In this document: positions 5,227 through 34,386 of the stretch, one piece after another
How positions within the stretch are numbered: position 1 is the stretch's first letter
Layout: each line of letters opens with the position of its first letter
Assembly: GCA_038999215.1 (NCBI GenBank)
Contig: JAWABM010000002.1
Coordinates: 1-48,815 of the forward strand
From: Candidatus Aenigmatarchaeota archaeon
Lineage (GTDB): Archaea > Aenigmatarchaeota > Aenigmatarchaeia > Aenigmatarchaeales > JACQIB01
Direction of reading: 5' to 3'
Length of the DNA stretch: 48,815 bases
Position numbers and translations under genes: made by a program
Notes under the pieces: model-generated
The model's input: only the letters and a program-made list of their open reading frames with translations
What the model was told of the DNA's origin: nothing
Database searches by the model: none

Positions 5227-6432
5227 ATGCTGGAGCTGCTCCTGGCCCTCGCTTTCGGTATCCTTCTCGGCGTGATATGCGGAATAATGCCGGGCCTGCA
5301 CCCTAATAACACGATACCTATCATATTCGGCCTGTCGTTCCTCTTCGACCCGATGCAGGCAGCCGTCGTGCTGATAGCAGCGGGCGTATCGAACTCTTTC
5401 GTGAATTTCATACCTTCTATATTCGTGGGTGCTCCGGATGCCGGCGCAGAGCTATCCGCACTACCTGGCCACAGGATGCTTTTGGCCGGCAGGGGCTTCG
5501 AGGCGGTGCGCCTCACGGTGCTCGGCGGTTTGGGCGCTGTCCTGCTGTCGGTGGCGCTGCTGCCCGCGTTCTCCGTCGTGTTCCCGCTCCTTTACAGGCT
5601 GGCGCGGCCTGTGCTCCATTGGCTTCTGCTCGTCGTCGTCTTCTACATGGTTGCGGGTGAGGAAGGCCTGAAAGGCAAGGCGATCGCCCTGTATGTCATT
5701 GCTGTATCAGGCGCGCTCGGCTATTTTCTTCTTGATGTCGTGTCCGTCAATGGCGCACTGTTCCCTCTGCTCTCCGGCATGTTCGGCCTGCCCATGCTGC
5801 TGCTGGCTGTCAAGGACAAGGTCCGTCTGCCCGAAGGCATGTCGTTCGAGCACGAGAAGATAGGGAAGAAGGACCTGCTTTCAAGCGTCGGGGTGGGCAG
5901 CATTGCGGGAGTTCTCGCCGGGCTTCTGCCGGGCATCGGCAGCTCGCAGGCCACCGTGCTCGCGCAGGAGGCTGTCGGCCGAGGCTCGGACAGGAAGTTC
6001 CTGATAGCGATGGGCGGCGTGGCAGTTTCCGATGTCGTGTATTCGATAATCGCCCTTTACATCCTCGGGAACGCAAGGAGCGGGATAGCTGTCGCCGTCG
6101 GAAACCTTGTCTCCGTCGGGCTCGGCCAGGTGTTGCTCTTCCTCTCCGTCGTTCTGGCGGCCGCGGGCATCGGCGCCTGCATGACCCTCAAGATGTCCAG
6201 GCTGGCCGTCGCCTTTCTCAGAAGGGTCGATTATGCGAAGCTGTGCATGCTGACGTTCGCCGGAGTCCTTGCGATGACGGCCTGGTTCTCTGGCCCCGCC
6301 GGCGTTGCCATATCGCTCGTTGCCTTGAGCATAGGGCTGATACCGAACATCGCCGGCGTGAAGCGCAGCCACTGCATGGGCTGCCTGCTTGTTCCGACGA
6401 TAATGTTTTTTGCTCAGCTCAGTTTAGGCTGA
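5227..6432 (+). CDS. TctA-family / DUF112 integral membrane protein (putative tricarboxylate-type transporter permease)
   Basis: 401 aa and highly hydrophobic. Motifs GIMPGLHPNN and LPGIGSSQA resemble the two repeated PG(L/I)G motifs of the TctA family. Confidence 0.65.
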   Translation: MLELLLALAFGILLGVICGIMPGLHPNNTIPIIFGLSFLFDPMQAAVVLIAAGVSNSFVNFIPSIFVGAPDAGAELSALPGHRMLLAGRGFEAVRLTVLGGLGAVLLSVALLPAFSVVFPLLYRLARPVLHWLLLVVVFYMVAGEEGLKGKAIALYVIAVSGALGYFLLDVVSVNGALFPLLSGMFGLPMLLLAVKDKVRLPEGMSFEHEKIGKKDLLSSVGVGSIAGVLAGLLPGIGSSQATVLAQEAVGRGSDRKFLIAMGGVAVSDVVYSIIALYILGNARSGIAVAVGNLVSVGLGQVLLFLSVVLAAAGIGACMTLKMSRLAVAFLRRVDYAKLCMLTFAGVLAMTAWFSGPAGVAISLVALSIGLIPNIAGVKRSHCMGCLLVPTIMFFAQLSLG

Positions 6433-9079
6433 CGAACTTCCCCAGGGAGCCGTTGTGCGAGAAATAGACCTGCGAACCGCACTCCGGGCACATGCCTGTG
6501 AGCGGCGGCCGCTTCGATACCCATCTGCACTTCTTGCACGCAACCCCGTCATTGCCCCGCAGGGTGGTCTGGTCCGGAGACGGCTCCTTCGAGCCCATCG
6601 CGTCCAGCAGGCTGCGCTGTCTGCAGCCTTCCAGAAGCTCGGTCCGCGTTATGTTGCAGACCTCGAATATCCTCTCGACAGGAGGCAGCACCTGGTTCTC
6701 CGCGTAATACTGCGCATCTATCTCCATGCCCTTCTCTTTCGCGTACTCCGGCTCCTCCGCGCGCTTGGAGAGCATGTCGTTGCCCTTGATTATCACGTAG
6801 CCCAGCCGCTCCCCGACCATGTTCTGCCTGGTCGGGTCTCGCTCCTTTATCTTTTTCGCCAGCTCCACGTGCGGCTGCATTCCGTCATACGCGTCCAGAG
6901 ACTTGGTCACGCCTTTCACGACGGTCAGCTTCTCGAGCGGCACCCTGCCTTCGGCCAGGTCCTTGAGCACCTTGCGCACGTGCTGCGACGCCTTGCTGAT
7001 GTTCTGCTCCTTCAGCATTATGGATATGACTTCCTTCATCGTGTCCGAGGTGAGCTCGCACCAGTCGCGCCGCACTGTCTCGATTCCCTTCATAACTATC
7101 TTGTCCTTCCATTTGCCGTCCTTCTTCTCGAACGCCCATCCGGCATACCGCTTCTTCGTGAGTATCAGGAACGTGTTGAATATCTTCTCGAAGGCTATGC
7201 TCAGCCCGGGCAGCCTGGCAGTGATGAAGCTCGCTATCTCGTTGCCTGTCTGCTCGGCTATGTCAAGGTTGAGTATGTCAGTCTTCAGGAATATCGAGTC
7301 CGTGTCCCCGTATATCACCTTGACTGGGAAGTTGTCCTCAACGAGCTTCTTCGTGTTGATGATGTTTTCCCTTCCTATGCTCGTTATCGAGTTGGCTATT
7401 GCCATGAGGTAGAGCCTTGATCTTATGTAGCCTGTGTACCCGTAGAGGCTGTTTGCCATGGTCTTGAGCGCGAGCTGTTTTGCGTTGAGCTGCCTTGTCC
7501 TCTCGGCATTCGTTTCCTTCTTCATCTCCGCCTTCGCGCGCTTTCGCGCATCAGTCATGTCCCGGAGCATCTTGGGTAGTATCCCTTCGCGCACCTCCTT
7601 CTTCACGAACTTCGTTCCGTACGGAGACGTCACGTATTCGCTCGTCGAGTCGTCGTAGAGCACCGTCGTCGGGCAGATGTTGAACGCCATGATTATCGAC
7701 GGGTACAGCGACTGGAAATCCAGCACGAGCGTGCACCCGGACGAGTGCAGGCCGACAGCTGGCTCGAGCACTATCGCGCCTGTGAGGCCGATTTTCGCCC
7801 TTTCGCTGAGCCTCCTGCTTATTTCCGCCTGGTCCGGCTTGCATGGCATGAGCATGTCCGCCTTCCTGAACTCGTGCAGCAGCCTGCACTCATGCCTCTG
7901 CGTCTGCCCTCCGAACGCGTCCTGCAGCAGCAGCCCCGATATCTTTGAGAGCTCGAAGAATTTGTCCAGCAGCCCCTTGTCCAATACGAGCCTCATCGCC
8001 AGCTCGGAGTCGCGCCTGCAGTAGTCGACCAGCTTTTTCATATCGGATGTGTTGCCGTTCCAGAGCTTCTTTATTTCCCTCACCCCGCCTACGTCCAGCT
8101 TCTCCATCCCCAGCATCTCCTTCGCAACCGTCGCCAGGTTGTAGCGCTTGAAGCTTATCCATGGGTCCTTCTTGAGTATCTCGAACGGGTCCGCTATCAC
8201 TCTTCCTGTTATGTTGGTTATCATGCTGCCGGTCACCTTCCTTGTGTAAGGCCTCTTGTCCGCCCTTCCGAGGTCAGGCTTTATTTCCAGGGCTTCCATC
8301 CTTCCGAGCAGGTAGGGGATGTCGAAGTTGTTGATGTTGTAGCCCACGAGGACGTCGGGGTCGTATTCCTTCACTATGTCTATGAAGCGCTCTATCATCT
8401 CCTTCTCTCCGTTGAAGCCTGTGCAGTCGCTGTCGACAAAGGCCTGTTTCGAGAGCAGCACCATTGTCTTCTTTCCCTTGTATTCGGGGCTGAAATAGAG
8501 CGATATCATTATTATCGGGTCCCTGCCGGCCTCGGGCAGCCTGTCGCCTTCCGTGACGCACTCTATGTCGAGCGCCATGTACCGCAGAGGCACGTTGTCC
8601 GGCCTGTCTATCGGCTCTATCGATTCCGCCTCGATTGCCCTGCACTTCACTGCCGCGGTGCGCACCTGCTTGCCCTTTACGTCCGCCCAACCCATGCCGA
8701 ACAGGCCGTGGTCCACCAGGAAGCGGTAGGCAAACAGTATGTCCGCGTCGTAAGGGGTGCCGTATTTCTTCACAGCTTCCCTCATCTCCGGGACCTTCGA
8801 TGGGTCGGCGCACGTCGCCTTCAGCACCTTCACTGGCGATTTTGAATATCCCATAGGTAGGAACTTTTCCGCAACAGCCGCATTGGCGCCATGCCTCTTT
8901 AGTTCCTCTGTTATGGCCGGGAAATTCTTCTCGTCCGCATGCACGTAGAAGTAGGGCCTGAACTTGTCGTAGAACGCGCACACTGATGATCCGTCCTCCG
9001 TCTTTCCGTACAGCCTTATGACCGGCTTGCTGTTTATCATCGCGTAATCGCAATCGAGAATCTGCATCTGCATGCGCAT
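6419..9079 (-). CDS. polB: family B DNA polymerase with extra C-terminal CxxC-x15-CxxC zinc ribbon
   Basis: Exo I ALDIEC, Exo II YNINNFDIPYL, Exo III YCRRDSELA. Pol A LDFQSLYPSII, Pol B KQLALKTMANSLYGYTG, Pol C VIYGDTDSIF. C-terminal tail CKKCRWVSKRPPLTGMCPECG. Candidate starts are 9079, 9073 and 9067; MQILDCDY matches the usual MILDxDY start. Confidence 0.95.
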   Translation of the reverse strand: MRMQMQILDCDYAMINSKPVIRLYGKTEDGSSVCAFYDKFRPYFYVHADEKNFPAITEELKRHGANAAVAEKFLPMGYSKSPVKVLKATCADPSKVPEMREAVKKYGTPYDADILFAYRFLVDHGLFGMGWADVKGKQVRTAAVKCRAIEAESIEPIDRPDNVPLRYMALDIECVTEGDRLPEAGRDPIIMISLYFSPEYKGKKTMVLLSKQAFVDSDCTGFNGEKEMIERFIDIVKEYDPDVLVGYNINNFDIPYLLGRMEALEIKPDLGRADKRPYTRKVTGSMITNITGRVIADPFEILKKDPWISFKRYNLATVAKEMLGMEKLDVGGVREIKKLWNGNTSDMKKLVDYCRRDSELAMRLVLDKGLLDKFFELSKISGLLLQDAFGGQTQRHECRLLHEFRKADMLMPCKPDQAEISRRLSERAKIGLTGAIVLEPAVGLHSSGCTLVLDFQSLYPSIIMAFNICPTTVLYDDSTSEYVTSPYGTKFVKKEVREGILPKMLRDMTDARKRAKAEMKKETNAERTRQLNAKQLALKTMANSLYGYTGYIRSRLYLMAIANSITSIGRENIINTKKLVEDNFPVKVIYGDTDSIFLKTDILNLDIAEQTGNEIASFITARLPGLSIAFEKIFNTFLILTKKRYAGWAFEKKDGKWKDKIVMKGIETVRRDWCELTSDTMKEVISIMLKEQNISKASQHVRKVLKDLAEGRVPLEKLTVVKGVTKSLDAYDGMQPHVELAKKIKERDPTRQNMVGERLGYVIIKGNDMLSKRAEEPEYAKEKGMEIDAQYYAENQVLPPVERIFEVCNITRTELLEGCRQRSLLDAMGSKEPSPDQTTLRGNDGVACKKCRWVSKRPPLTGMCPECGSQVYFSHNGSLGKFVSLN

Positions 9080-11117: not shown

Positions 11118-11357
11118 TTGTGCACCTCCTTTTCTTGTGGGATTCGGGTTTAATTGCGTGAAGGTATATAAACTTTTCTCCATGTGAAGCAGGGGGGTTG
11201 GCGTGAAGTTCCATGGGAAATCATGGGGTTCACATGACTCCTAGAAAAAATGGTCCTGAAGCTTAAAATAAGCCTTTTTACGGCTTTTGCCGTTCTGTGA
11301 ACTTCATTTTAGTGGTGTCATGTTCATTTTGTTCATTTTCAGTTCACAAATGACTAT

Positions 11358-11372
11358 ATAACAATGTTATAA
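11358..11372. promoter_or_regulatory. 15-bp palindrome TATAAC-AAT-GTTATA (copy 1 of 4)
   Basis: Read directly from the sequence. Perfect 6-bp arms with a 3-nt spacer, inside the oriC-like region. Confidence 0.6.
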
Positions 11373-11477
11373 TTGGTTCCATGAGCAGAAATTTCCACAG
11401 GAAAGCCATACCCCTTACTTTCCTTTGAATATTGCAAATTATTATCGATAACGTCAGGAACGGTACCTTTATTTCCT

Positions 11478-11492
11478 ATAACGATGTTATAT
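11478..11492. promoter_or_regulatory. 15-bp palindrome TATAAC-GAT-GTTATA (copy 2 of 4)
   Basis: Read directly from the sequence, 120 bp from copy 1 and inside the oriC-like region. Confidence 0.6.
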
Positions 11493-11554
11493 ACATACAT
11501 ACGCAACAAAATCTAATTATAAAAAGCACTTCGACAAGAAATCATGGGGAGGCC

Positions 11555-24283: not shown

Positions 24284-24298
24284 TATAACACCGTTATA
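24284..24298. promoter_or_regulatory. 15-bp palindrome TATAAC-ACC-GTTATA (copy 3 of 4)
   Basis: Read directly from the sequence, in the 360-bp divergent region between the surface-protein gene and the wHTH gene at 24422. Confidence 0.6.
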
Positions 24299-24718: not shown

Positions 24719-25046
24719 TTTCTTCGGCTATTATTTCCTTCTCGTTCTCGTAGGTGGTGTACGTGCCTGTTACTGTTATGTTCGAGCCTTCCTTGGCTCC
24801 GTTGAGGCTTGTGCCCTTGAAAGCCACTACTCTTATGCTGCCTGTCCCGTCCGTCAGCGTCAGGAAGCTGTGCCCTTCATTTGTCGTATATAGGGAGATT
24901 ATTGTGCCATTCAGCGCCACGTTGTTGCCCAGATCTGCTGCCTTTAGCCCCCCTATGGTATACGTTACAGGCTCTTTGGGTGAGAATATGATTATTCCGG
25001 CCACGCCGAGCAGGGAACAAAGCAAGCAGGTCCTGAGCATGTTCAC
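24702..25046 (-). CDS. membrane-anchored OB-fold protein
   Basis: N-terminal TM/signal segment LLCSLLGVAGIIIF, followed by an OB-like barrel (VALNGTIISLYTTNEGHSFLTLTDGTGSIRVVAFKG...ITVTGTY). Start is GTG 25046 or ATG 25040. Its 3' end overlaps the wHTH gene by 17 nt. Confidence 0.55.
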   Translation of the reverse strand: MNMLRTCLLCSLLGVAGIIIFSPKEPVTYTIGGLKAADLGNNVALNGTIISLYTTNEGHSFLTLTDGTGSIRVVAFKGTSLNGAKEGSNITVTGTYTTYENEKEIIAEEIMPAA

Positions 25047-25053
25047 GTGATAT

Positions 25054-25608
25054 TCACCTTAGCTTCACGCTATGGATTTCGCTGTATATAGGCCCTTTGG
25101 GAGTCAGTTTGGATTCAAACAGCGTTATCTCTTCTACTTTGAATGAGCCTATGTCAATGCCTTTCAGTTCCCTTATGACGGATATGAGTTCTGGGCTGCA
25201 TCTGCCTTTCACCCTGGCCAGCGTTAGGTGCGGGGTGAAGCCCCTTTCGTCCTTGGTTATGCCAAGGCTTTCGAGCCCCATTTCAATGGATTCTGCTATT
25301 GCCGAGAGCGCCTGACCGCCTTTCTTCATGCCCAACCATATTGTCCTTATGAAGGTCGGTGACGGGAATGTTCCTATATCGGCTATATGGGCGTCGAATG
25401 CCTCGAACTGGCTGCATATGCTGTCCATGGCAGCTTTGAGCTTTGGCAGGCTGTTCAGCTCGTATTCGCCTATGAATTTGAGATTGAAATGCAGGTTTTC
25501 AGGCTCGACAAGCTTTATGTCATCGTCTGTGCTGTCAAGCCTGTCCTGTATTGAGGCTATTTTTGCCTTAAGGTCCTCCGGAATTTTGACAGCTATGAAC
25601 AGGCGCAT
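25054..25608 (-). CDS. thpR: RNA 2',3'-cyclic phosphodiesterase / 2'-5' RNA ligase family (2H phosphoesterase, ThpR/LigT)
   Basis: MRLFIAVKIP start. The first 2H motif reads HFNL (usually H-x-T/S-x) and the second is the canonical HLTLARV; 184 aa. Confidence 0.8.
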   Translation of the reverse strand: MRLFIAVKIPEDLKAKIASIQDRLDSTDDDIKLVEPENLHFNLKFIGEYELNSLPKLKAAMDSICSQFEAFDAHIADIGTFPSPTFIRTIWLGMKKGGQALSAIAESIEMGLESLGITKDERGFTPHLTLARVKGRCSPELISVIRELKGIDIGSFKVEEITLFESKLTPKGPIYSEIHSVKLR

Positions 25609-25646
25609 AGGATAATCTTATGTGTTTAGGGCCTTAAATAAGCGCT

Positions 25647-25661
25647 TATAACAGTGTTATA
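25647..25661. promoter_or_regulatory. 15-bp palindrome TATAAC-AGT-GTTATA (copy 4 of 4)
   Basis: Read directly from the sequence. It lies 39-53 nt upstream of the thpR ATG, just distal to a TATA-like TTATTTAA (minus strand, 25632-25642). Confidence 0.6.
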
Positions 25662-25743
25662 AGGACCGTTGGCAGCTGAGAGGCAAGAAAGTTCCATAAA
25701 ATCTTTTTTCCGTTTGCCAACCTTCATTCATCTTCACGTAATA

Positions 25744-25933
25744 TTCACGTGAAGGTAACGTGAAGATAGCACATTCACCCTCACTATCACCAACAATTGA
25801 TAAAATATTCACGTGAATATGCGTGAAGTTCACGTGAACATATACATGAATATGTAACTTTCTGTTTGTTGCTAAACAAAACTAAACAAAATAAACGTGA
25901 ATTCACGTGAACGAAACGTGAATAAGACGTGAA
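25744..25933. repeat. iteron clusters, GTGAA orientation (ACGTGAA / TTCACGTGAA units, 10-12 bp phasing)
   Basis: GTGAA starts at 25749, 25760; 25813, 25823, 25834, 25846 (ATGAA variant); 25897, 25907, 25918, 25929. Perfect palindromes TTCACGTGAA at 25744, 25808, 25829 and 25902, GTTCACGTGAAC at 25828-25839, and ACGTGAATTCACGT at 25895-25908. Confidence 0.85.
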
Positions 25934-26110
25934 CTTAAAATAGGATCAGAAAGCTGATTTTTGGCTCAATCAGGGTTTACCCTGCGGTTCCGGCAAATCA
26001 GCAAATTTTTCCTTTTTTCCCTGCTATTTTACTGGCTGAACTCTCACAAACCAGAAAAATCGGCCAAAAACAGGCATTTTTCTGTGAAATATATGTTTCA
26101 ATATATATTT

Positions 26111-26187
26111 ATCTTCACAAAACCTTCACTTTTCGTTCATTTGCTTCACGCGACCTTCACAAAATCTTCACATGCCCTTCACGTGAA
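26111..26187. repeat. tandem array of seven ~11-bp iterons, TTCAC orientation
   Basis: CTTCAC/GTTCAT hexamers start at 26113, 26124, 26135, 26144, 26155, 26166 and 26177, giving spacings of 11, 11, 9, 11, 11, 11. The last unit is TTCACGTGAA (26178-26187). Confidence 0.85.
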
Positions 26188-26196
26188 TGTAAAACC

Positions 26197-26204
26197 TTTA
26201 TATT
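26197..26204 (+). promoter_or_regulatory. TATA box for the AAA+/winged-helix gene (leaderless geometry)
   Basis: TTTATATT is centred about 26 nt upstream of ATG 26227. One further GTGAA unit (26211-26215) lies between the TATA box and the ATG. Confidence 0.45.
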
Positions 26205-26226
26205 TCTGGCGTGAATATATGTTTTG

Positions 26227-27321
26227 ATGGCAATGGAGCAGAATTTCAGCAAATTCGGATGGAAGGAAGACCCTTTCACTTTAAAAATAGACCCTTCGCT
26301 TTTCACAGGGTATGGCGAGCAGGTAAATGCCTTGGAAAATCATGTTTCCGAGCACCACAAGATAGCTCTTGTGACAGGCCCGACAGGATCCGGCAAAACG
26401 ACCCTTCTGAAATGGCTGGAAACCAACATGCCCGGCTGCGCAAAGCTCTATGTGAGCAAGCCGCCTGAGAAGCCCGAGCAGTTCGTGGGCATTTTTACCG
26501 ACATCTTCGGCATCAGCTTCTTTGACAGGCTTATTGGCAGGAAGGTCACGCTTTTCAATCTGCCCAAATATGTCAATTCCAAGCTCAGGGGCCACCACCT
26601 GGTTTTTCTGCTGGACGAAGCCCATGAGACCAACAGGGAGGTCATGGAATGGCTGCGCGTGCTTATCGACCAGATAAGCAGCATAAGTCTTGTCATGGCC
26701 GGCATGCCCGTCCTCGAAAGGAAGATAAAGGAGGAGCTGGAAACGCTTGACCAGCGCATAACGACCAGGGTGGCGCTCCAAGCCCTGAACAGGGACGATA
26801 CAAGGTCGCTCATAAGGAAGAGGATAGAGGCCGCCGGCGGCACCGGCATAGCGCCTTTCTCAGATTCGGCTGTTGACGCGATTTATAGCAAGACTGGCGG
26901 CTTCCCCAGGGAAGTAATAAAGCTATGCGACAAGCTCGTGAAGGACGCCATTGAAAAAGGCTTCGATGTGATAGAGGCCGCCAACATCGATACCTATAGG
27001 GAATTCGACCAGAATGTGAGAGTTGAGGAGCAGACCGTGACGTTCACGCCCAAGCCGCCGAGCGAGGAGCAGTTCAACAACCTGCCATACAAGCAGAAGA
27101 AGATTCTTGAGGTCCTGGCCAAGCAGGACTGGCTCACCCCGTCCGCGATTGTGGACGCGGTTGAGATGAAATCCTACAAATCCAAGGGCCATGCGGTCCG
27201 CTCCGTGAACAACATCCTTCATAGGCTGATGTTCGAGGGCTATATTCAGCGCGAGTCCCGCGGCAAGGCTTTCATGTACGCTTTGTCCCCGAAGGTAAAG
27301 ACGCTCTTCGTCGAAAAGTGA
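26227..27321 (+). CDS. AAA+ ATPase with C-terminal winged-helix domain (divergent Orc1/Cdc6-, ExeA- or Arch_ATPase-like)
   Basis: Walker A GPTGSGKTTLLKWL and Walker B LVFLLDEAHE. An arginine-containing sensor-like region (RITTRVALQALNRDD). C-terminal wH KKILEVLAKQDWLTPSAIVDAV...VNNILHRLMFEGYIQRESRGKAFMYALS. About 364 aa. Confidence 0.8.
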   Translation: MAMEQNFSKFGWKEDPFTLKIDPSLFTGYGEQVNALENHVSEHHKIALVTGPTGSGKTTLLKWLETNMPGCAKLYVSKPPEKPEQFVGIFTDIFGISFFDRLIGRKVTLFNLPKYVNSKLRGHHLVFLLDEAHETNREVMEWLRVLIDQISSISLVMAGMPVLERKIKEELETLDQRITTRVALQALNRDDTRSLIRKRIEAAGGTGIAPFSDSAVDAIYSKTGGFPREVIKLCDKLVKDAIEKGFDVIEAANIDTYREFDQNVRVEEQTVTFTPKPPSEEQFNNLPYKQKKILEVLAKQDWLTPSAIVDAVEMKSYKSKGHAVRSVNNILHRLMFEGYIQRESRGKAFMYALSPKVKTLFVEK

Positions 27322-27734
27322 AAGTTAAATCCTTTTTCTATGAACCTTTTTGCATGGTTGAGACAGGCTTGGTGGCGTGCGGCACTGTAATGGGCGTGAC
27401 TGTTGGCGGCTCGCTGCTGCTGTATCATTCGACTGAGTTTGCCAAGGGAGAAGATAGGCGCGTGGAGTCTGAATACAGGGAAATCTGCGAGAAATACGAG
27501 GGTCTCACTTCTCCGAACGGCGTTAGGGCTTTCAGGGATTCGATGCGCGCCATGTTCGAGTCCGCCAAGGAGCGCGCGCGCAACGACGGCTGGCTCGTCT
27601 ATCCGGCAATAAGAAGGATGATGGTGAAGGCCTGGCAGGCGGATATCGACGTTCTTGATGCGATAGACCCTGCCGACGCAGACGCTTATCAGCGCATAAG
27701 GGACGTTTTCAAGGCGACCGGCCAGTGGAAATAA
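27318..27734 (+). CDS. hypothetical protein with N-terminal TM helix
   Basis: GTG 27318 overlaps the stop of the AAA+ gene (GTGA); the alternative start is ATG 27354 (MVETGLVACGTVMGVTVGGSLLLY). The rest is helical and charged. No family recognised. Confidence 0.5.
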   Translation: MKVKSFFYEPFCMVETGLVACGTVMGVTVGGSLLLYHSTEFAKGEDRRVESEYREICEKYEGLTSPNGVRAFRDSMRAMFESAKERARNDGWLVYPAIRRMMVKAWQADIDVLDAIDPADADAYQRIRDVFKATGQWK

Positions 27735-34310: not shown

Positions 34311-34386
34311 AGCCCCGTAGTCTAGCGGCCAAGGATAGCTGGCTCTGAACCAGCGGACCGAGGTTCGAATCCTCGCGGGGCTACCA
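34311..34386 (+). tRNA. tRNA-Gln (anticodon CUG), CCA encoded
   Basis: Cloverleaf folded by hand. Acceptor AGCCCCG/CGGGGCU with an A1-U72 pair. Anticodon stem GCUGG/CCAGC with loop CUCUGAA. T arm CGAGG-UUCGAAU-CCUCG. Discriminator A followed by CCA. Confidence 0.9.

Follow-up and report, generated by a model that had tools for sequence, protein, structure and literature searches.

A phylum-wide field of helically phased GTGAA/TTCAC sites beside a AAA+/winged-helix gene near orc1 in Aenigmatarchaeota

Results

A repeat field between thpR and a AAA+/winged-helix gene

The stretch of DNA analysed here (48,815 nucleotides of contig JAWABM010000002.1 from a Candidatus Aenigmatarchaeota archaeon; hereafter the window) contains a non-coding gap between a thpR/LigT-like gene (25054–25608, minus strand) and a plus-strand gene (26227–27321) for a 364-amino-acid (aa) protein made up of an AAA_22 AAA+ ATPase and a C-terminal winged helix. 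The gap carries a field of short GTGAA/TTCAC units (25730–26215), of which the AAA+/winged-helix protein is the presumed reader. Measured up to a TTG codon at 26224 the gap (25609–26223) is 615 bp long, and the 618 bp reported in a first-pass annotation of the sequence holds for the distance up to the ATG at 26227; its GC content is 36%, in a contig of 53% GC. Rfam and tRNA scans found no RNA genes in it.

The gap contains 24 strict pentamers, 12 GTGAA and 12 TTCAC, against 1.39 expected from the 133 such pentamers of the window (Poisson P = 1.2e-21); when the gap was shuffled 5000 times the mean was 1.3 and the maximum 6. The 12 GTGAA units share a rotational phase at a period of 10.5 bp (resultant 0.84) and the 12 TTCAC units at 10.6 bp (resultant 0.92), in both cases across the whole 480 bp of the field, and the first-pass description of about 20 helically phased units is therefore borne out, with 24 strict units and a period of approximately 10.5 bp. 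The 10-bp palindrome TTCACGTGAA occurs five times in the window, always in the gap (25744, 25808, 25829, 25902 and 26178); with up to one mismatch there are six copies where 1.16 are expected, and six or more were reached in none of 100 shuffles. Pairs of units 9–12 bp apart were found at only three sites of the window, namely the gap itself, 25042–25064 and, with relaxed units, 11323–11343. The 40-mer at 26076–26115 is the second least stable of the window by duplex stability, several intergenic regions being comparable.

The field is conserved and stays with the AAA+ gene

Relatives were collected by a scan that kept one genome per species, which gave 80 loci at 39–76% identity, each with flanks of up to 10 kb. 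Nearly all are labelled Aenigmatarchaeota, and a few are labelled Nanoarchaeota, Nanohalarchaeota or Aminicenantia; the labels of the metagenome-assembled genomes (MAGs) are those deposited. An orthologous field was present in most of these genomes: 15–38 units lay within 800 bp upstream of the ortholog in 52 of the 80 loci, and at least nine in 70 of them, against a background of 1–4 units per 800 bp elsewhere, in genomes of 25–53% GC. GTGAA was the most enriched 5-mer upstream of the AAA+ gene in most loci, and clusters of at least three phased units were found between −1100 and +30 in 52 of 81 loci, with just seven such clusters in the other 813 kb of the flanks.

The first-pass annotation had proposed a comparison of synteny in related genomes, and this comparison tied the array to the adjacent AAA+/winged-helix gene. 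The upstream neighbour differs between loci, being thpR, a homolog of g24422 (L002–L015) or an NrdG-like gene (L021, L026, L027, L030–L032 and L041), and the array lies directly 5′ of the AAA+ gene whichever neighbour is present. In two loci (L018, at 5242–6000, and L019) the full array and promoter are separated from the AAA+ gene by a 252-aa open reading frame (ORF) with LAGLIDADG-like motifs (GFIEGDGSF, GFIEAEGSF), which looks like a free-standing homing endonuclease gene that landed in the leader. One clade (L039, L049–L052, L059, L079 and L080) has fewer GTGAA units and carries TAACGTTA palindromes in addition.

Same-orientation sites face one side of the helix

When 1373 units from all loci were pooled, the spacings between same-orientation units peaked at 11, 22, 31–32, 42, 52 and 62–63 bp over a flat background. 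The best period fell at 10.25–10.75 bp in 77 of 88 arrays with at least eight same-orientation units each (median resultant 0.82), and the period of the pair distances was 10.45 bp both below 60 bp and at 61–200 bp, with coherence fading farther out. As 10.45 bp is the helical repeat of B-form DNA, same-orientation sites all lie on one face of the duplex for about 20 turns. The extended consensus of the unit is a-C-GTGAA-(G/C)-w-T. Around 190 palindromes, units in phase showed a polarity, TTCAC being enriched on the left (400 vs 269) and GTGAA on the right (291 vs 198), and many modules are thus extended palindromes such as that at 25730–25767.

Alignment of 11 upstream regions revealed orthologous modules, with one TTCACGTGAA that is the same in all of them and with conserved blocks that are not repeats (GCAC..CTCAC..ATTAACAAT and AACTCTCACAAA). 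Module 1 (25730–25767) is a 38-bp extended palindrome with 2 + 2 half-sites (TTCAC at 25733, TTCACGTGAA at 25744–25753, GTGAA at 25760), the 19-nucleotide (nt) arms of which are 84% complementary without a spacer. It is followed by a non-repeat spacer block of the GCAC..CTCAC..ATTAACAAT type (25768–25803), which aligns across relatives, and by module 2 (25804–25850), with TTCACGTGAA at 25808, GTGAA at 25823, the longer palindrome GTTCACGTGAAC at 25828–25839 and ATGAA at 25846; it is the first palindrome of this module that is invariant in the 11 genomes. Two copies of CTAAACAAAA (25872–25891) are missing from the other rows of the alignment and represent a lineage-specific insertion outside the conserved design. 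Module 3 (25893–25936) has GTGAA at 25897, TTCACGTGAA at 25902 and GTGAA at 25918 and 25929. The central stretch (25937–26075) is poor in units, and only AACTCTCACAAA (26039–26050) recurs in relatives; its two hairpins are present here and are specific to this lineage. Next come an AT-rich stretch of 37 bp with 14% GC (26076–26112), a possible unwinding element or TATA-like promoter element, and the promoter-proximal module 4 (26113–26187, plus strand), in which six CTTCAC and one GTTCAT follow each other in steps of 9–11 bp and end in a palindrome at 26178–26187, and the consensus of which is kept in the 11 genomes.

Most individual elements listed in the first-pass annotation were recovered where it had placed them. 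In the left half nine GTGAA starts were verified (25749, 25760, 25813, 25823, 25834, 25897, 25907, 25918 and 25929), a tenth, at 25846, being ATGAA; the four TTCACGTGAA palindromes listed there and GTTCACGTGAAC are present, with the copy at 26178 as a fifth. The seven units of the right half (CTTCAC at 26113, 26124, 26144, 26155, 26166 and 26177, GTTCAT at 26135), the CTAAACAAAA repeat, the two hairpins and a three-unit mini-array outside the field were likewise confirmed. The AT-rich stretch exists, and is better drawn from 26076 than from 26088. What proved not to be conserved was the layout of opposed halves around an AT-rich core: the longest stretch free of units varies among relatives between 51 and about 400 bp, and in L007–L015 it is only 51–81 bp, so that the field is continuous there.

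To the right of module 4 lies a TATA-like box, TTTATATT (26197–26204), followed by a GTGAA at 26211–26215, the two together (26197–26215, plus strand) standing 12–30 nt before the ATG at 26227. This box, which like the other TATA-like boxes was read by eye, is the putative promoter of the AAA+ gene; with units on both of its sides, the promoter would be bracketed by them. The satellite mini-array (25042–25068, minus strand) consists of three phased GTGAA units (TTCAC at 25042, 25053 and 25064) inside the 3′ end of thpR, and it ends on the start codon of a gene for a 114-aa OB-fold protein. Since it is likewise placed in L001 and L031, the factor that reads the field may target the OB-fold gene as well.

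The adjacent protein combines a MuB/ExeA-like ATPase with an AspA/ArsR-type winged helix

In Pfam the protein matches AAA_22 (PF13401, E = 1.7e-13, above cut-off), and the scan found no Cdc6 lid or Cdc6 winged helix (PF22703, PF09079) and no Bac_DnaA. Its top NCBIfam match is ExeA-like TIGR03015 (E = 1e-28, below cut-off), no Orc1 model being found in that scan, and the closest solved structure by sequence is MuB (8xvb, E = 1e-4). Profile–profile comparison (hhalign) with an alignment of Aenigmatarchaeota Orc1 gave a probability of 63%, over the AAA core only. In the AlphaFold model (predicted local distance difference test, pLDDT, 78), three helices lie between beta2 and beta3 of the AAA+ base, and the protein further has a lid, a linker and the C-terminal winged helix. 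With the full-length model, Foldseek placed Sulfolobus solfataricus Orc1 on origin DNA first (2qby_A, E = 5e-10), followed within one order of magnitude by RFC, MuB (template modelling score, TM, 0.66) and TnsC (7plh, TM 0.64); the fold of the ATPase module gives TM values of 0.64–0.68 to MuB and TnsC. When the winged helix was modelled alone (pLDDT 83), its top fold match was AspA of pNOB8 (4rs8_A, E = 4e-4, TM 0.74, root-mean-square deviation 1.8 Å), with ArsR/SmtB, MecI and MarR repressors close behind, TubR at rank 50 and no Cdc6 winged helix among the top 50; by fold E-value (about 4e-4), AspA is barely separated from the ArsR and MarR repressors. Judged by these profiles and models, the adjacent protein is not an Orc1/Cdc6.

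Residues that are invariant even when distant relatives are included comprise Walker A (GxxGxGK), Walker B (DEAH), R178, which is a candidate arginine finger, and a sensor-2 motif, GGFPR229. The predicted recognition helix, H-A-[VI]-R-S-[VI]-N-N-I-L-[KH]-R-L, is invariant across the phylum, as is the GTGAA motif, and co-variation between helix and motif is uninformative because neither varies. The full-length family forms about 45 clusters at 50% identity and extends to Nanopusillus/Nanobsidianus, Jingweiarchaeum and one Asgard MAG; in these Nanoarchaeota, Jingweiarchaeum and Asgard members (L085, 4001–5017, from Nanopusillus; P0165, P0209 and P0205) the recognition helix has diverged, and in the Nanopusillus locus PolB is encoded within 4 kb of the AAA_22/winged-helix gene. 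Outside the full-length family, the ATPase part alone is common to TPR/zinc-ribbon proteins and to ExeA/GspA; here the C-terminus is a winged helix, not PG_binding.

An origin in a mobile element was rejected. A tblastn search of plasmid and phage collections returned relatives of the ATPase part only, namely bacterial ExeA/TniB-like proteins next to transposases, plus Mu B, and no full-length relatives; the conserved neighbourhood of the AAA+ gene contains no transposase. A defence system was also rejected, PADLOC giving only weak P-loop matches. The gene is housekeeping-like and conserved, and it is apparently single-copy. Directly downstream of it are a non-conserved 138-aa ORF, a gene for an adenylate-kinase-like P-loop protein and RadA. 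The 138-aa ORF (27318–27734) overlaps the stop codon of the AAA+ gene, has no Pfam match and no homolog in the 80 related loci, and is either lineage-specific or not a gene.

An ORB-type origin candidate lies beside orc1 in the same island

The field belongs to an island that in the window runs in the order PolB (6419–9079), Orc1, HTH_3, CBS, Toprim/DnaG-like, OB-fold, thpR and field, and continues with the AAA+ gene, the adenylate-kinase-like gene, RadA and an RPA-like protein, with two ribonucleotide reductases farther on. The same gene order is found phylum-wide (6419–30701 of the window; L083, L084 and L087–L091): PolB, orc1, HTH_3, CBS and DnaG-like Toprim, then thpR, OB-fold, the AAA+/winged-helix gene, adenylate-kinase-like, RadA, RPA-like and histone. 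No gene for ParA, ParB, ParM, TubZ or SMC was found in the window, and no match to actin-, tubulin- or ParA-like proteins. The Orc1 protein (9927–11117/11183) is canonical (NF001625, E = 2e-153). Its longest ORF has 418 aa, starting from 11183, and the deposited protein 396 aa; the real start is probably 11117, since an AGGAGG-like sequence precedes that ATG, and this would widen the intergenic region to 437 bp.

That region (11118–11554) has three elements resembling origin recognition boxes (ORBs), at 11209–11228, 11393–11414 and 11529–11549, which are inverted about an AT-rich stretch. Exact TTCCANNGGAAA dyads occur twice in the window, both times here (11209 and 11393), with none in 25730–26215, and the element at 11209–11228 (TTCCATGGGAAATCATGGGG) carries the classic G-string. 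ORB and mini-ORB elements are recognised by a conserved TTCC...GAA core (PMC1904270, the one source used for the mini-ORB comparison), and archaeal origins are defined by ORBs on either side of an AT-rich stretch beside orc1 (PMC4010727). The layout, consisting of ORB-like elements with G/C-strings, two TATAAC-N3-GTTATA palindromes and an AT-rich core, recurs in L082, L087–L089 and L091 (Orc1 63–87% identical) and is reduced in L035 and L081. On the strength of the ORB signature and this recurrence, 11118–11554 is a candidate canonical origin. Regression of four-fold-site GC and TA skew over the 48.8 kb, with gene orientation as covariate and crude gene calls, gave weak minima at about 11 kb and about 20 kb, and no clear switch at 26 kb or 11 kb.

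Units of the field type occur in this region as well. The orc1 TATA box (11165–11172) is bracketed by GTGAA at 11158 and 11184, and a phased GTTCAT/GTTCAT/GTTCAC triplet lies at 11322–11347. The 11-mer GCGTGAAGTTC of the field (25821–25831) recurs here, as the first-pass annotation had noticed, its position being 11201–11211 and not 11202–11212. The link to the orc1-proximal region that had been drawn from these similarities was strengthened by the relatives: in six genomes the orc1 TATA box stands between GTGAA/TTCAC units, and the AT-rich core holds a few phased ones; L035 and L081 have neither.

The two genes are also linked in space. Homologs of Orc1 and of the AAA+ protein were found on shared contigs, some of just 28–40 kb, and the distance from orc1 to the AAA+ gene is 15.0 kb in the window, 14.3 kb in Ga0366824_1000001, 11.6 kb in Ga0315282_10000091, 19.7 kb in CAYGWB010000002.1, about 6 kb in L035 and, by synteny, about 12 kb in a 727-kb contig. 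In the window and in three other contigs, those for which both strands were recorded, transcription of the two genes is divergent.

The TATAAC-N3-GTTATA palindrome occurs four times in the window (11357–11371, 11477–11491, 24284–24298 and 25647–25661), where 0.04 are expected. The orc1/HTH_3 intergenic region has two copies in L082, L087, L088 and L091 and one in L089, and in 12 of 81 loci a single copy sits at the field's left edge, next to the thpR promoter. The HTH_3 protein encoded next to orc1 may bind this palindrome.

Discussion

A proposed binding platform near the origin candidate

The array, phased to the helix and conserved throughout the phylum, keeps company with a gene for a AAA+/winged-helix protein and, within 20 kb, with orc1. 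With moderate confidence we take the field to be the cognate, high-capacity binding platform of the adjacent protein, which would form an origin-proximal organising complex there, serving as a centromere-like or an initiation-control/titration site and not as a second origin that fires. In the mechanism that we envisage, the winged helix would recognise GTGAA, dimers of it would nucleate on the TTCACGTGAA palindromes, and further protomers would occupy the flanking half-sites, one per helical turn and hence all on one side of the DNA. The AAA+ modules could then link the protomers into an ATP-dependent cooperative oligomer, with about 450 bp of DNA bent or wrapped. The complex would repress its own gene, as suggested by the last module, which abuts the TATA box, and by the additional unit between TATA box and start codon. 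A link to replication genes would come from the few satellite units found beside the TATA box of orc1, within the AT-rich core of the neighbouring origin candidate and where the OB-fold gene starts. The filaments that MuB and TnsC build on DNA are helical and depend on ATP, and in this they resemble the proposed assembly. The ATP-dependent cooperativity proposed here is modelled on DnaA at closely spaced boxes of the same orientation (PMC5716108), and autorepression is modelled on ParR at parC (PMC2241845) and on AspA upstream of its own gene (PMC5120986).

Several points weigh against this interpretation. Our choice of binder follows solely from linkage and from conservation on both sides, and Orc1 or another factor could be the reader of the units; the AT-rich stretch beside an oriented array would fit an origin equally well. 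The enrichment of units at palindrome flanks is only about 1.5-fold, which makes nucleation and growth a loose model, and the field has no neighbouring gene for a partner motor (ParA, ParM or TubZ). Furthermore, one clade (L067, L073, L076 and L078) keeps the protein with a short intergenic region and only one or two units, and no array was found upstream of the ortholog in Nanopusillus (Nanoarchaeota), so a large array appears to be dispensable for the core function of the protein.

Plasmid segregation systems are among the closest parallels to the design. In R1 parC/ParR and tubC/TubR, as here, phased iterons (11–12 bp in those systems) lie in two sets that flank the operon promoter, and the centromere-binding protein doubles as autorepressor and forms a curved or ring-like segrosome (PMC2241845, PMC6009700). 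The field shares the arrangement of type II/III centromeres, in that phased 10–12-bp iterons flank the promoter of the gene for the predicted binding protein, and TubR is a winged-helix protein that appears among the fold matches of the domain. Unlike those systems, the field is chromosomal and conserved across a phylum, has 20–38 sites instead of 7–10 and is paired with a DNA-binding domain fused to a AAA+ module, with no ParM or TubZ motor encoded nearby. For AspA of the Sulfolobus plasmid pNOB8, nucleation takes place at a palindrome that precedes the aspA gene itself, and the protein then spreads along more than 200 bp as a continuous protein–DNA helix (PMC5120986). It is archaeal and the best fold match of the winged helix, but it is a stand-alone protein of 93 aa that spreads over non-specific DNA and has ParB and ParA as partners, whereas the locus described here offers specific phased sites and a fused AAA+ module. 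As to the ATPase, the AAA_22 proteins MuB, TnsC, TniB and ExeA are its nearest family by sequence and fold; they differ in that here there is no transposase partner, and in that the winged helix, predicted to be sequence-specific, has no counterpart in them. A likeness to ParB–parS was also considered, because TTCACGTGAA equals the central 10 bp of the parS consensus tGTTTCACGTGAAACa (e.g. PMC7022226) and parS too lies near a replication origin (here a candidate). Membership was rejected: the flanks differ from the 16-bp parS in all five copies, most units of the field are phased half-sites, and the window encodes no ParB or ParA. The match is probably a coincidence, given the differing flanks and the lack of ParB in the window.

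A bolder version of the platform reading, which we put forward as a tentative possibility, is that a transposon-type (MuB/TniB/ExeA-like) AAA+ module joined to a winged helix has become a chromosomal DNA-tracking machine that polymerises on the phased array, in Aenigmatarchaeota and perhaps in other DPANN archaea with the same family. It could serve either as a centromere with the motor or adaptor built into the binding protein, or as a non-Orc1 replicator–initiator pair beside the Orc1 origin. If true, this would be a chromosome-maintenance system undescribed in any domain.

Other readings of the field

The first-pass annotation favoured a second replication origin or a partition site, and the former has been weakened. 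It would hold that field and gene are an independent replicator–initiator pair, the second or the true chromosomal origin, at which the protein oligomerises in the manner of DnaA, melts 26076–26112 and recruits MCM. A repeat field in cis with a gene for an initiator-like AAA+ plus winged-helix protein is a hallmark of archaeal origins (PMC4010727), and the locus shares with Orc1/Cdc6–ORB origins of the oriC1 type its intergenic position, its AT-rich stretch and its setting among replication genes (PMC4010727). It lies within a replication and repair gene island, the 37-bp stretch of 14% GC abuts the oriented promoter-proximal array, and Orc1 on origin DNA is the top fold match of the full-length model (2qby_A, E = 5e-10). 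The opposed arrays recall the DnaA-oligomerisation region of E. coli oriC (PMC5716108), where, in the part of that article that cites Rozgaja 2011, two DnaA subcomplexes of opposite polarity are described. DnaA likewise joins AAA+ to a C-terminal DNA-binding domain and forms cooperative oligomers on close same-orientation sites (PMC5716108), but the protein here has no DnaA homology (no Bac_DnaA) and many more sites, no conserved counterpart of the DUE or the DnaA-trio is apparent, and the resemblance is architectural only. Against an independent origin stands, above all, the ORB candidate beside orc1, 6–20 kb away in every genome examined, which would make a second origin redundant in a genome of about 1 Mb. 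In addition, a central core that is unit-free or AT-rich is not conserved (largest gap 51–81 bp in L007–L015), the duplex-stability minimum is not unique in the window, and the protein lacks the Cdc6 lid and Cdc6-type winged helix, aligns with Orc1 only over the AAA core (63%) and has an ArsR/AspA-type winged helix. The units differ from ORBs too, being 5-bp cores at 10.5-bp intervals, whereas ORBs are 13–36 bp long with a TTCC..GAA core (PMC1904270), and the canonical ORB site is separate, beside orc1. Given an ORB site so close in every genome examined, an unwinding core whose layout varies and a protein that does not qualify as an Orc1/Cdc6, we consider a second origin unlikely, and the constancy with which the array stays 6–20 kb from orc1 across the phylum argues in the same direction. 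Nor does the field resemble a plasmid-type iteron origin, which combines direct iterons of 17–22 bp with a Rep gene: its 5-bp cores recur every 10.5 bp in both orientations, and no Rep-family match was found among the neighbouring genes.

Quite unlikely, in our judgement, is an ordinary, oversized operator, through which the protein would repress its own gene and a small regulon (orc1, the OB-fold gene and possibly thpR) with no higher-order structure. AAA+ initiator paralogs can be transcription factors, for example Sulfolobus Orc1-2 in the DNA-damage response; the TATA boxes of the AAA+ gene and of orc1 have units on both sides, the start of the OB-fold gene is covered by units, the winged helix is as near to the ArsR, MarR and MecI repressors as to AspA, and one clade copes with one or two units. 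However, 20–38 sites over some 450 bp, with phase held for about 200 bp and throughout the phylum, are more than repression needs. An operator would also leave a fused AAA+ module, catalytically intact by sequence, unexplained, and it sits poorly with the two loci (L018 and L019) that retain the full array despite a homing-endonuclease gene between promoter and coding sequence.

Very improbable is a reading in which Orc1 recognises the units as a lineage-specific mini-ORB, the field being an accessory Orc1 sink or regulatory cluster comparable to the second ORB cluster in Pyrococcus dp1 or to the inhibitory one of Haloarcula oriC2. Origins with many mini-ORBs and cooperative Orc1 binding do exist, as do ORB clusters outside origins (PMC1904270, PMC4010727), the ORBs beside orc1 have GTGAA units between them, and the outer TTC...GAA of the ORB dyad is common to TTCAC-GTGAA, but the canonical TTCC..GGAA with its G-string is a separate element of which both exact window copies lie beside orc1 and none in the field, the field follows the AAA+/winged-helix gene and not orc1, and the locus with the largest array (L035, 38 units) has no GTGAA beside its orc1.

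Significance

Chromosome segregation and replication control are, to our knowledge, poorly understood in archaea, and we know of nothing established for DPANN. DPANN archaea cannot be grown alone. The literature searched held nothing relevant on an origin or a repeat field in Aenigmatarchaeota or other DPANN. The parts are familiar, namely iteron-type phased sites, an initiator-like AAA+ protein with a winged helix, and autoregulation; new in that literature is the combination of an ExeA/TniB/MuB-type ATPase and an AspA/ArsR-type winged helix with a hard-wired array of 20–38 sites near an Orc1 origin, found phylum-wide. The locus amounts to a compact, testable protein–DNA pair, a protein of 364 aa and 480 bp of DNA, with an unusually regular geometry of one site per helical turn, in phase for about 20 turns, and it is kept throughout a phylum with genomes of 25–53% GC. 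Should the protein polymerise on the array, this would illustrate the targeting of a filament ATPase of the MuB/TniB type by a sequence-specific domain, and the locus would provide either the first candidate for a DPANN chromosomal centromere or a new regulator of Orc1-dependent initiation. For practical purposes, array and ORB site together provide a sequence signature with which the origin region can be found in Aenigmatarchaeota MAGs.

Other observations

A scan of IMG/VR contigs for four GTGAA at an exact spacing of 11 bp returned at least 120 unrelated iteron or tandem-repeat arrays, none of them with a homolog of the AAA+/winged-helix protein or with the palindrome. Viral arrays of (C)TTCAC(A) phased at 11 bp were seen in L096 (11030–11320), L162, L172, L142 and L104; that of L096, whose neighbouring genes gave no Pfam or PHROG match, is most like the promoter-proximal module. 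In the window, the sole Rfam or ARAGORN match was a tRNA-Gln (CTG) gene at 34311–34386.

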